Of a DNA stretch of 64,000 nucleotides, positions 6,749-9,629 are shown piece by piece. The first letter of the stretch is position 1, and each line of letters begins with the position of its first letter. The notes beneath the pieces are model-generated. The model was not told the origin of the DNA and searched no databases. It was given only the letters and a program-made list of their open reading frames with translations. The stretch comes from a virus: IMG/VR virus record IMGVR_UViG_3300023181_000005, positions 5,427 to 69,426 of that record, one strand, 5' to 3'. The position numbers and the translations under genes were made by a program.

Positions 6749-7396
6749 TTAACCCAGAGTCACCTTCCACTTGCCGTCCACCTGCTCAAGTTTCGGCTGG
6801 ACCGAATAGCCGTAAAGTTTACGCCCTAGGCTTTGATCGCACAATGAAGACGATTGGCAGACCGTGACGTTGATTCCGCGCCAGTTGGCATCACGAATCC
6901 AATACTCCATACAGCCGCGTCCAGCCTCCGCGAAGCCGCGGTTGTCAGGATACGTGAAGTCGAAGCCGTAGAGCTTGATGTGCTTTACCCCCATGTAGAT
7001 TGCCAACGCCAAGGCGTAACTACTAGTGTTGTTGAGGTAAGGGTAGTTGATGACGTTTAGCACGGCCTCAAGCGGATACTCCACTGATCCGGGAAACTCA
7101 GGGTAAAACTTGGGCGTATAGATGGGGCCTGGGTGAGTCTTGAGCCAAGTGGCATATCCAGCGAGGCCGGGGTTAAGCTCCCTTGCTGCCTTCTCAAAGT
7201 ACGGCAACTCATCCATCATGATAGCTCGATCATGCTCAATGATGCCAGCCATCGCGTTGATCGCCCACGTTTCGTCAGCTACGCCCTTGCGACCCTTAGC
7301 ACCGATGCACTCGTTCAGGTAATCAACGTGACTTGGCCCCATTGCCACGATTGCCACCGTGTAAGGAGCGCGGTTGTCGTCGGTGGATGTGCTCAT
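6749..7396 (-). CDS. DUF115/Maf/GT42-like (sialyltransferase-fold) protein
   Basis: VAIVAMGPS at the N-terminus, WAINA, and NTSSYALALAIYMGVKHIKLYGFDF, the pattern seen in MptE-like/Maf/CstII-fold proteins. Confidence 0.6.
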   Translation of the reverse strand: MSTSTDDNRAPYTVAIVAMGPSHVDYLNECIGAKGRKGVADETWAINAMAGIIEHDRAIMMDELPYFEKAARELNPGLAGYATWLKTHPGPIYTPKFYPEFPGSVEYPLEAVLNVINYPYLNNTSSYALALAIYMGVKHIKLYGFDFTYPDNRGFAEAGRGCMEYWIRDANWRGINVTVCQSSSLCDQSLGRKLYGYSVQPKLEQVDGKWKVTLG

Positions 7397-7605
7397 TTCA
7401 GATGGAATCGAATCATGTTTAAGCAGGTGATAATATCATCAGCTCTTTTCTGGTCGCTGGAAGGCTCAACATAATCAGCAGGCATCCCAGGCCCACATGG
7501 GCCACTCTTCCCTAAAGGACCAGAACCTAACGGAATACAAATCTCATTATAGATCGACTCAACCTCAGACCAAGCTTTGTCGAGCCTGTCAGAATAATCA
7601 CTCAT
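7393..7605 (-). CDS. Hypothetical protein
   Basis: ATGA overlaps with both neighbours; start moved to MSDYSDRL. Confidence 0.55.
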   Translation of the reverse strand: MSDYSDRLDKAWSEVESIYNEICIPLGSGPLGKSGPCGPGMPADYVEPSSDQKRADDIITCLNMIRFHLK

Positions 7606-8291
7606 CGGAATGGGGGGCCTTTGAACCAAGTCACCAGCGAGTACCGCTTGCCGCTCTCAACCTGAGTCACCTGATGGCGGTTGAAAGCAGGGAAGAAAAT
7701 CATGTCACCTTGACCGCCAAACTCGCCTTCAGCCAGCGGCCCACCTTGCAACTCAAGCTTTCCGCCTGTGTAGGTAGTGGGATCTGAAAGCTGAATCACC
7801 ATACTCATCTTGCGTTCAAGCGGAGCGTAGTCTTGCGCTTTTTCGTTGAAGCACTTGCGAGCATTCTCTTTGGCAAAGGCCTTCTCACCATCGCTGGCAT
7901 TGTGAGCAACCTGAAGGCAACCGAAATCCTTCCACCATTTATCGAAAGGATCGTAAACCCAAGTGTTATCCTCATGCCAAGAGTAATGGCCTGCGCTTTG
8001 GGCGTCGTACTCGGTGAATTGAACCTCTGTAAAGTCGCGAATATCGAGGCCAAATGACTTATTGTTCGACCACTCAGCACGGGCGCTAATCCGATCAAAC
8101 ATCCAAAGCAGGTCTTTATGCCACCGTGGCAACCAGCGAATCGTTGATGATCGCATATCCTTGTTCACGACGAACTGACCGCCGTGGCCGATGCCGCCCT
8201 CAACAGGTGGAATCGACATGCCAAAGTCAATAATGCGCTGGCACTCCTCGGGCGTGAAGCAGCCCTTCCAGATTTCTCTCCAAGATTTCAT
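7602..8291 (-). CDS. 2OG-Fe(II) oxygenase, prolyl-4-hydroxylase/PKHD-like
   Basis: HYSWHED (HxD), RKMSMVIQLSDP..YTGGKL, GDMIFFP...HQVTQVESGKRYSLVTW (distal His and 2OG-binding Arg). Confidence 0.9.
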   Translation of the reverse strand: MKSWREIWKGCFTPEECQRIIDFGMSIPPVEGGIGHGGQFVVNKDMRSSTIRWLPRWHKDLLWMFDRISARAEWSNNKSFGLDIRDFTEVQFTEYDAQSAGHYSWHEDNTWVYDPFDKWWKDFGCLQVAHNASDGEKAFAKENARKCFNEKAQDYAPLERKMSMVIQLSDPTTYTGGKLELQGGPLAEGEFGGQGDMIFFPAFNRHQVTQVESGKRYSLVTWFKGPPFR

Positions 8292-8294
8292 TCG

Positions 8295-9629
8295 TTAATC
8301 TCTCCAACGTTCAAGGTTTCTCTTCATCTGCTCCTCAGACTTTGGAGCAAAACGGATATGCGCACAACCTTTTCTTATGCCAGCCACCACAACAGTCACC
8401 TCATTGGCGACGATTGAAGCGCCTGCGAGAACGGTAAGCGTGCCATTTTCGACCGTTGCGCCAACTGGAACAGGGTGTGTGCAGGAGGTTGACCAGACTT
8501 TAAGAGTTTGAGGCTCGATGGTTTCGAGAAAGAGCGAATCGACTGGCATTGAGGCGCGACGAGACGAGCCCACAATCAGAGTGTAGGTGTCGAAGAACCA
8601 TGCGTCAGGAGCCTCGGCGCAGTAAAGAGCGCGAAAACCTTGGGATGTTGGGACGATAGCGAGCTTGGTTCCTGTAGGTCCGGGTGGCCCCGGAGGTCCG
8701 GGCGGTCCACCTGAAGGGCCAACGGGTCCGGTTGGTCCGATAGGCCCAATGCTGCCAGGAGGCCCAGCTACACCTGTGGGGCCAGGGTTTCCGGGCGGTC
8801 CTTGAGGGCCGTTCGGTCCTGGACCGCCAGGAGGTCCGGGCGCTCCATTGGGACCGTTAGGGCCTGGAGGCCCGACGCCGCCCGTTGGTCCAATAGCTCC
8901 GGTTGGGCCTGGGGGGCCACCGAAAGGTCCGGTTGGTCCTACGGGTCCAGGCGAGCCAATACCTGTAGGTCCACGGGGTCCAGTAGGGCCGGTAGTTCCA
9001 GGTGGGCCAACGGGACCAACAGGTCCAGGCCCACCGGGAGGGCCATTTGGACCAAGCGGGCCAGTCATGCCTGTAGGACCAGGAGGTCCTGGAGGACCGC
9101 CACTCGGACCGATGGGGCCTGTAGGTCCAGCGGGGCCAGTGCCACCAGGAGATCCTGGACTGCCAGGAGTACCATTATTGCCAGATGGACCAGGAGGGCC
9201 AGGGCCACCAGTTCCGCCTGGGGTTCCAGGTGGTCCAGCCACACCTGTAGGGCCAGCAGGACCGGGAGGACCAGGGGTAGCGGGACCAGGAGGACCGGGA
9301 GCGCCTACTGGCCCAGGAGGTCCACCAAAAGGACCAGTCGGACCAGCGGGGCCTGTGCTTCCAGTTGGTCCTCTTCCGCCAGTGGGGCCAGCCGTACCAG
9401 TCGGCCCTGGAGGACCAGGAGCGCCAGAGCCTCCAGTTGGACCTGGGGCGGCATCAAATGCCTGACCACCACCTGGGCCTAGGGTTGTATTAACGCCCAC
9501 AGGGTCAACGCGCATTGTGTTAGCGCCTGGAGTTGTCGTCATCAACAATCCACCACCAGCTACGTTCCACGGCTTATTTTGCCAAGGAGAATCGCTCTGG
9601 AAAATTCCTGCTGGAGTTTGGATCGCCAT
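8295..9629 (-). CDS. Collagen-like fibre protein with C-terminal globular domain
   Basis: About 84 Gly-X-Y triplets rich in GPP/GPT. C-terminal [14 protein letters not shown] resembles phage fibre chaperone/trimerisation domains. Confidence 0.9.

Follow-up and report, generated by a model that had tools for sequence, protein, structure and literature searches.

A prolyl-4-hydroxylase-type oxygenase encoded behind a proline-rich collagen gene in a phage genome: a candidate collagen prolyl hydroxylase

Passages of two reviews describe prokaryotic collagens as lacking hydroxyproline and bacteria as lacking a prolyl hydroxylase (PMC8968730, PMC11923368). One of them also describes a prolyl-4-hydroxylase (P4H) of Bacillus anthracis that is active on PPG peptides, as well as the exosporium collagen of this bacterium, BclA, a Gly-Pro-Thr collagen that is O-glycosylated on Thr (PMC8968730). 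Mimivirus, the subject of two papers (PMC9546862, PMC12279948), is known to encode collagens together with modifying enzymes, namely L230, a lysyl hydroxylase with a glycosyltransferase (GT), and R699, a collagen glucosyltransferase. Iyer, Aravind et al. (2010) proposed, in a part of their paper, that dioxygenases encoded beside collagen-like or tail-collar genes hydroxylate the products of these neighbors (PMC2938197). In our full-text literature search, no publication came up that connects an oxygenase of phages with one of their collagens; UniProt holds automatic names, such as 'procollagen-lysine 5-dioxygenase [uncultured Caudovirales phage]'. Here we analyze a 64,000-nucleotide (nt) stretch of viral DNA (the window), corresponding to bases 5427-69426 of IMG/VR record IMGVR_UViG_3300023181_000005, in which a gene for a 2-oxoglutarate (2OG)-Fe(II) oxygenase directly follows a gene for a collagen-like fibre, and we propose a substrate for this enzyme from the genomes themselves.

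The collagen-oxygenase gene pair and its relatives

A compact run of structural genes occupies the minus strand between about 14160 and the start of the window. It includes the following genes and open reading frames (ORFs), with lengths in amino acids (aa):

14160..13426, minus strand: second collagen-like gene, 244 aa, likely second substrate
10455..9640, minus strand: g271, the gene upstream of the 444-aa collagen gene
9629..8295, minus strand: collagen-like fibre gene, 444 aa (PF01391), proposed substrate
8291..7602, minus strand: 2OG-Fe(II) oxygenase of P4H type, 229 aa (PF13640), proposed collagen prolyl hydroxylase
7605..7393, minus strand: small orphan ORF, 70 aa from its ATG, 78 aa if begun at TTG 7629
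7396..6749, minus strand: protein with a predicted MptE-like/Maf/GT42 fold, 215 aa, proposed second fibre-modifying transferase

Only 3 nt (8292-8294) separate the collagen stop codon from the oxygenase ATG. The oxygenase TGA overlaps the ATG of the small ORF (ATGA), and the stop codon of the small ORF overlaps the ATG of the 215-aa gene in the same way (ATGA, 7393-7396). An initial annotation, made from the letters alone, had described just this succession of a collagen gene, a 3-nt gap, a 2OG-Fe(II) oxygenase and ATGA-coupled genes ending in a Maf/GT42-fold protein, and ORF calls, Pfam searches and structural modeling bear it out. The small ORF is missing from L002, the nearest relative of the window, and tblastn found no homologue of it in any fetched locus save L001, which is the window's own DNA.

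The 444-aa protein matches the Pfam Collagen family PF01391 (E 2.9e-23, 81.8 bits against a cut-off of 27.2) and comprises an N-terminal segment of 62 aa, a Gly-X-Y region at residues 63-322 and a C-terminal globular domain of 122 aa. The 260 residues of the Gly-X-Y region form seven in-register runs of 5-24 triplets with six register shifts. Counted run by run, its 89 triplets have Pro at position Y (Y-Pro) in 34 cases (38%), Thr at Y (Y-Thr) in 21 (24%) and Pro at X (X-Pro) in 57 (64%), and 18 of them read Gly-Pro-Pro (GPP). The region holds no Asp or Glu, two Arg and a single Lys (K322). The initial annotation had counted about 30 Y-Pro in 84 triplets, 18 GPP and 21 Y-Thr, which is close to our recount, and its description of a region without acidic residues, with two Arg and a terminal Lys, agrees with ours. 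The 244-aa collagen has 17 Y-Pro and 15 Y-Thr in 40 triplets and no charged residue. To obtain a background, the viral collection was scanned with a pattern requiring only ten successive Gly codons, which gave 107 distinct collagen ORFs with a median Y-Pro of 0.006. Because only 1 of these 107 unselected ORFs reaches a Y-Pro of at least 0.30, the composition of the 444-aa protein is far from chance.

Tail-fibre PHROGs match the 444-aa protein via its repeat alone. Its C-terminal domain has homologues in L002 and L030-L033; it has no relative in the PDB and, as a single query, retrieved no further viral loci. Five of the six register shifts (window 8664-9443) lie at G-G-P-P-G-like joints where neighboring runs overlap by two residues; the Gly-X-Y interruptions of this collagen are regularly built, not random.

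The 229-aa oxygenase belongs to PF13640 (2OG-FeII_Oxy_3; E 3.2e-11, 44.5 bits against a cut-off of 27). Of 468 candidate relatives, 427 score at E ≤ 0.001, and among the 120 listed a length of 184-195 aa prevails. The Fe(II) triad H106-x-D108...H206 and R216-x-S218 do not vary across 25 aligned sequences and are kept in each of the three clades of the oxygenase tree described below, and the block R47-x-S49...W53 lines up with the algal P4H 2jig. In a profile search of the PDB, true P4Hs come next after PiuC-type proteins, namely the Chlamydomonas P4H (2jig/3gze, 5e-6) and the PBCV-1 enzyme (5c5t, 7e-6). After the HxD strand, an insertion of about 39 aa (residues ~111-155; window ~7827-7961) is unique to the window enzyme, being absent from all 24 other aligned homologues (~188 aa), including one at 68% identity. 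The AlphaFold model has a predicted local distance difference test score (pLDDT) of 85.6, with low confidence in the insertion only, and its best structural match is the Pseudomonas prolyl hydroxylase PPHD (4iw3; Z 20.5, root-mean-square deviation (rmsd) 2.6 over 178 residues). PHD2 (Z 19.0; rmsd 2.6-2.7 over 178 residues for the two together), algal P4H with bound peptide (3gze; 18.9), viral collagen P4H (5c5t; 18.0) and PiuC (16.5) also match, and every one of the 50 entries listed in this ranking is either a prolyl hydroxylase or PiuC/3dkq, with Z 16-20.5. As modeled, the oxygenase is of P4H type, its double-stranded beta-helix being closest to those of solved prolyl hydroxylases.

Viral relatives were sampled at 80 loci per query. 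The oxygenase tree comprises 66 distinct sequences, drawn from the window and 80 viral loci, and places the window oxygenase within a 16-member clade (support 99/97). In thirteen members, the gene immediately upstream, on the same strand, encodes a Y-Pro-rich collagen, and L027 also has an adjacent Y-Pro-rich collagen (Y-Pro 0.36). Contig ends truncate the remaining two loci, of which L002 still shows the collagen C-terminal domain (58% identity). In 23 loci of the window clade, all 37 upstream collagen ORFs have a Y-Pro of 0.31-0.88 (pooled 634/1415), which differs from the background with a Fisher p of 1e-24 counted by locus with kinship ignored, and collagen and oxygenase genes overlap by the 4 nt ATGA in nine. 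These collagens differ in size (116-444 aa), in the number of copies (1-3), in their end domains and in X-Pro (0-0.76), that of L479 being built of Gly-Leu-Pro without a single X-Pro; Y-Pro alone stays high. The collagen-upstream arrangement is shared by all three close oxygenase homologues in bacterial genomes, which are counted among the 23 loci; prophage-like loci of this kind occur in Prosthecobacter and Polynucleobacter records. Among metagenome contigs, some of which are identical to ones in the viral set, loci at 39% identity or more have an upstream collagen in 27 of 29 informative cases, and in 25 every collagen ORF has a Y-Pro of at least 0.3; below 39% identity, a collagen was found in 1 of 40 informative loci.

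A further sample was anchored on g271, which gave no Pfam, PHROG or Atlas lead and which is independent of the collagen and the enzymes. Of its 54 loci, 7 carry a collagen with the oxygenase, 5 carry a collagen with a homologue of the 215-aa gene (the Maf-like gene), 34 with at least 1500 nt available downstream carry neither collagen nor enzyme, and 8 are too short downstream to score, one of these being left off the tree. A collagen alone or an enzyme alone was found in none of the 54. Y-Pro is 0.36-0.51 in the loci with the oxygenase and 0.00-0.12 in those with the Maf-like gene (Mann-Whitney p 0.005). The initial annotation had pointed to this comparison, and among related phages Y-Pro does track the oxygenase. 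Collagens of related phages without the oxygenase have an X-Pro of 0.48-0.68, so it is Y-Pro and not X-Pro that separates the two groups. The states are scattered over the g271 tree, where each requires at least four changes, and three sister contrasts, for example L474 versus L446, have the high Y-Pro on the oxygenase side. In the close relatives L442 and L441, the collagen and oxygenase genes are swapped as one block for 2.7 kilobases (kb) of other genes; the pair is exchanged as one cassette. Genome-wide, a PF13640 gene is absent from all five records of phages with a collagen and a Maf-like gene (three of them at least 97% complete), and a homologue of the 215-aa gene is absent from all five records of oxygenase phages. 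A further phage, G070, whose stand-alone GT is 71% identical to that of the window phage (see below), has no oxygenase, and its collagen has a Y-Pro of 0.00.

Y-position proline as proposed target, and the alternatives

We consider it probable, with moderate confidence and on comparative grounds, that the 229-aa enzyme hydroxylates the Y-position Pro of the co-encoded collagen fibres. During infection it would act as a peptidyl-prolyl hydroxylase on Gly-X-Pro triplets, its substrates being the 444-aa fibre, whose gene ends 3 nt before its own, and in all probability also the 244-aa fibre. The reaction would take place on unfolded chains in the host cytoplasm, with Fe(II), 2-oxoglutarate and O2, and would precede the zipping of the chains into a triple helix. 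Charge pairs, as present in other bacterial collagens, are missing from these fibres, and hydroxyproline, presumably the 4-hydroxy form, would raise their stability. The initial annotation had suggested that the phage hydroxylates its own fibres in an animal-like way, animal collagen bearing hydroxyproline at position Y; several independent comparative tests and the P4H-like model support this idea, and the converse, that a Y-Pro-rich collagen implies the enzyme, does not hold.

A number of observations weigh against Y-Pro hydroxylation. Among viral collagen ORFs with GPPx3 and at least 700 nt downstream, the oxygenase is present in 2 of 28, and among records with a collagen Y-Pro of at least 0.3, a PF13640 gene is present in 4 of 25 (21 being without one) and in none of the three complete ones. 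We accordingly rejected the notion that Y-Pro-rich phage collagens are generally accompanied by the oxygenase, and since most records with such collagens are without it, hydroxylation is not needed for collagens of this kind. Viral collagen ORFs with Gly-Pro-Thr x3 have an oxygenase in 7 of 46; we take these seven, which were not placed on the tree, to be of the type of a third oxygenase clade. This third clade (21 rows, L034-L078) has its oxygenases one to three genes from collagens of another kind, in which, pooled, position Y is Gln in 43%, Thr in 34% and Pro in 2.5% of triplets, and two L052 collagens are nearly Pro-free. The putative active-site residues are identical in the window clade, the third clade and a sister clade of 11 rows without a collagen nearby (contigs of 79-206 kb), and given that the same residues occur in clades without Y-Pro collagens, the substrate of the family may not be Y-Pro in general. 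Among the metagenome loci of the window clade, L743 and L764 have no collagen in 740-1195 nt upstream, and two collagen ORFs have a Y-Pro of only 0.24-0.26. The cross-locus counts are inflated by relatedness, independent contrasts are few, and common inheritance of a single ancestral cassette may account for part of the association in the clade. Finally, the nearest PDB entries by sequence are PiuC/PKHD-type proteins (profile E 3e-11, C-terminal half only), and the insertion of the window enzyme is modeled at a pLDDT of only ~50.

In a rival reading, the oxygenase modifies the fibre elsewhere, be it X-Pro (by 3- or 4-hydroxylation), another residue or the globular ends. In the collagens of both collagen-linked clades the most frequent residue is X-Pro (64% in the window; 32% when the third clade is pooled), the putative active-site residues do not differ between clades, and the B. 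anthracis P4H is described in a passage of a review as hydroxylating Pro at X as well as at Y of PPG peptides (PMC8968730). We nevertheless regard a target of this sort as unlikely, in view of the Y-Pro rather than X-Pro difference between collagens with and without the enzyme and of the L479 and L480 collagens, which lie beside clade members and have an X-Pro of 0-0.03 with a Y-Pro of 0.47-0.48. We likewise give little credence to an inherited, non-functional linkage in which the true substrate lies elsewhere, in the host proteome, in metabolism or in some further protein of the virion, as is usually assumed for phage '2OG-Fe(II) oxygenase' auxiliary genes. Such a linkage would accommodate the sister clade without collagens, the Y-Pro-rich collagens without the enzyme and the PiuC-type relatives tied to iron uptake, and the role of viral P4H genes has been called 'cryptic' in a part of one paper (PMC9301287). 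It is harder to reconcile with a clade whose collagen architecture is very diverse while only Y-Pro is constantly high, with the absence from the g271 sample of any enzyme without a collagen, and with a pair that is exchanged as a unit and often translationally coupled. The insertion, being unique among the 25 aligned sequences and poorly modeled, raises the question of a catalytically dead protein, either a fibre chaperone or a decaying gene; with all invariant family residues kept, the frame open and the rest of the model confident, we judge this very improbable. Hydroxylation of Y-Pro thus remains the reading we prefer.

Other putative fibre-modifying genes and genome context

The 215-aa protein belongs to a family with 418 homologues at E ≤ 0.001, found only in phage-like contigs, with a mean column identity of 67% (23 sequences). 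Weak matches to the MptE-like family PF01973 occur in 11 of 23 family members (best E 0.0013), and one member weakly matches a sialyltransferase PHROG. Aligned by hhalign with PF01973 domains from 24 bacterial genomes, the family profile gives a Prob of 61.5% and an E of 7.8e-5 over only 44 columns, compared with a Prob of 0.1-0.7% for three control alignments, and once the alignment is extended, its GPS, D-x4-D and G-x-D motifs follow the same order as in those domains. The structural model (pLDDT 85.9) is most similar to Maf 5mu5 (Z 11.2, rmsd 3.2, 162 residues), followed by thiamine pyrophosphokinase (11.0), MptE/HPPK 8sd5 (10.7, 144 residues) and CstII 1ro7 (10.3, 155 residues); the first row outside the Maf/GT42/MptE fold group has a Z of 6.3, and Foldseek TM scores are only 0.47-0.51. 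The Maf/GT42 assignment made by the initial annotation is thereby confirmed at the level of fold.

In related phages the 215-aa protein replaces the oxygenase behind Pro-poor, often Thr-rich collagens, and it may be a second, separable fibre modifier. Among 80 loci of its family, six of the seven closest after the window have a collagen upstream, and four of these genes overlap the collagen. Some relatives are fused to a class I S-adenosylmethionine (SAM) methyltransferase (Atlas cluster: 442 aa, 105 members). Three findings count against a role on the fibre: the Pfam match of the window protein itself to PF01973 (E 0.0027, 17.9 bits) lies below the cut-off of 34.6, no collagen is nearby in 72 of the 80 loci, and the fold is common to pyrophosphokinases, thiamine and pterin enzymes scoring equally well. 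As the fold is common to glycosyltransferases and pyrophosphokinases, it is compatible with sugar transfer and with pyrophosphoryl transfer alike. Tracking of Y-Thr with the Maf-like gene, which was considered as well, is unsupported; oxygenase-only phages reach a Y-Thr of 0.43 with no Maf-like gene genome-wide. The glycosylated fibres suggested by the initial annotation thus gain from the fold call and from close relatives directly behind collagens, and lose from the ambiguity of the fold, the behavior of Y-Thr and the failure to identify any sugar-donor pathway in the genome. Glycosylation by the Maf-like protein is only plausible; our best guess, held with less than even confidence, is transfer of a sugar or another nucleotide-activated group to the fibre. 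Nor is the 'operon' supported as a conserved trio. Among the fetched loci checked for both, the oxygenase and the Maf-like gene occur together only in the window and L002, and the two are alternative partners of the collagen gene.

A stand-alone GT domain of PLOD type lies about 12 kb from the collagen operon, among four methyltransferase genes:

60288-60830, plus strand: class I methyltransferase of the GT cluster
61989-62597 and 62540-63343, plus strand: two FkbM-type methyltransferases of the GT cluster
63289..64000, running on across the terminal repeat as far as contig base 210 (L621), plus strand: stand-alone PLOD-type GT domain (PF25342)
contig (L621) 232-879, plus strand: class I methyltransferase of the GT cluster

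The GT domain matches PF25342 (E 3e-26, 92.6 bits against a cut-off of 27), human LH3 (6wfv, E 2.2e-13, with the D-x-x-D stretch aligned) and mimivirus R699 (9dyt, 2e-8). Because the collagens of this phage hold one Lys, its acceptor cannot be hydroxylysine as in LH3. The cluster (window 60288-63343, L621 232-3031) also holds three proteins of 331, 367 and 376 aa without a family match, those at contig 801-1904 and 1901-3031 having neither a Pfam nor a PDB match, and it looks like a glycan-tailoring cluster. The PLOD-type GT was rejected as a conserved partner of the collagen and oxygenase. It is absent from all 45 related records, in a search whose positive control on the window's own genome worked, and none of 22 stand-alone homologues has a collagen or small oxygenase within 6 kb.

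Homologues of this GT domain form part of a ~530-660-aa protein in 49 of 80 viral loci. Six such proteins examined with Pfam all have GT25 and GT_PLOD domains, the latter in the middle, and five have 2OG-FeII_Oxy_3. The chain of GT25, GT_PLOD and 2OG domains (L643-L702, e.g., L650:5341-7197 and L659:5116-7098) resembles a collagen galactosyltransferase plus LH3 in a single protein, and it often follows a small oxygenase of the window oxygenase's family. A same-strand collagen is present in 27 of the 49 fusion loci, with Lys at position Y at 0.11-0.77 in all 27; 21 of the 107 background ORFs reach at least 0.10. Judged from sequence, the LH3-like fusions are a second case of collagen composition matching the adjacent enzyme. 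More tentatively, and with somewhat less than even confidence, we suggest a phage toolkit in which position Y is tuned to the adjacent enzyme, P4H-type oxygenases going with Gly-X-Pro collagens, LH3-like fusions with Gly-X-Lys collagens and Maf/GT42-fold proteins with Pro-poor, often Thr-rich collagens.

As for the genome as a whole, the virus record is 69,426 base pairs long, has direct terminal repeats (127 bases are common to both contig ends) and is estimated to be complete. DNA resemblance to known phages is confined to the collagen repeat, and promoter and terminator signals were at chance level in a scan of 4000-14500. Just downstream of the fibre genes, an ORF of ~2,000 aa (window 3-4394, minus strand, on to contig base 3779) has no Pfam or PHROG match. 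An HNH endonuclease gene (15456-16097, plus strand; PF13392, E 5e-14) lies on the opposite strand inside the minus-strand structural block.

Comparison with known systems

If the proposed activities are correct, hydroxyproline, and glycosylated hydroxylysine or threonine, would be made in the bacterial cytoplasm and built into phage fibres, and the textbook view that prokaryotic collagens are free of these modifications would fail for a large class of such proteins. Some of the many phage genes that carry the name '2OG-Fe(II) oxygenase' without an explanation would gain one, and the findings would bear on the origin of collagen modification. The enzyme would also be a small, soluble collagen P4H suited to the bacterial cytoplasm and supplied with its natural substrate, which would be useful for the production of recombinant hydroxylated collagen.

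The window oxygenase shares with PBCV-1 vCPH (5c5t) and Cr-P4H-1 (2jig/3gze) its fold, the HxD...H triad and a Tyr three residues before the first His, and its R-x-S...W block aligns as well, as noted above for 2jig. All are small single-domain enzymes acting on Pro-rich chains, a function that is predicted for the window enzyme, and vCPH is likewise virus-encoded. Unlike these two, to which it is ~15-20% identical, the window enzyme has a bacterial host and its gene is coupled to a Gly-X-Pro collagen gene. Collagen P4Hs use Lys for the 2OG carboxylate, whereas the window oxygenase is predicted from its residues to hold it by the R-x-S motif. In its Arg-based 2OG binding it resembles its best structural matches, PPHD, which acts on EF-Tu, and PHD2/EGLN1. 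Those enzymes hydroxylate a single Pro in a folded regulatory protein, whereas the context of the window enzyme points to collagen and nothing to EF-Tu or signaling. PKHD-type PiuC/YbiX (9qn0-9qn4, 9ghl, 3dkq) provide the best PDB sequence match and belong to the same Pfam family; they are cellular, are not encoded beside collagen genes and are structurally less similar than the prolyl hydroxylases. PiuC is linked to iron uptake, and we know of no defined substrate for it.

In B. anthracis, to our knowledge, the P4H gene is unlinked to bclA and hydroxyproline has not been found in BclA, whereas the window enzyme is operon-coupled to a Y-Pro-rich collagen. The 215-aa protein has the fold of Maf flagellin glycosyltransferases, GT42 CstII and the archaeal MptE pyrophosphokinase, and differs from them in being minimal, phage-only and sometimes fused to a SAM methyltransferase. 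The phage resembles mimivirus in being a virus that encodes collagens together with candidate modifying enzymes. Mimivirus L230 and R699 and human LH3/PLOD3 act on Lys or hydroxylysine; the window collagens hold a single Lys, and the GT stands alone. The dioxygenases treated in the pertinent part of Iyer et al. are of other families, and no tracking of collagen composition is reported there (PMC2938197), whereas the enzyme described here is of P4H type, is encoded by phages and has a presence that the composition of the adjacent collagen tracks.

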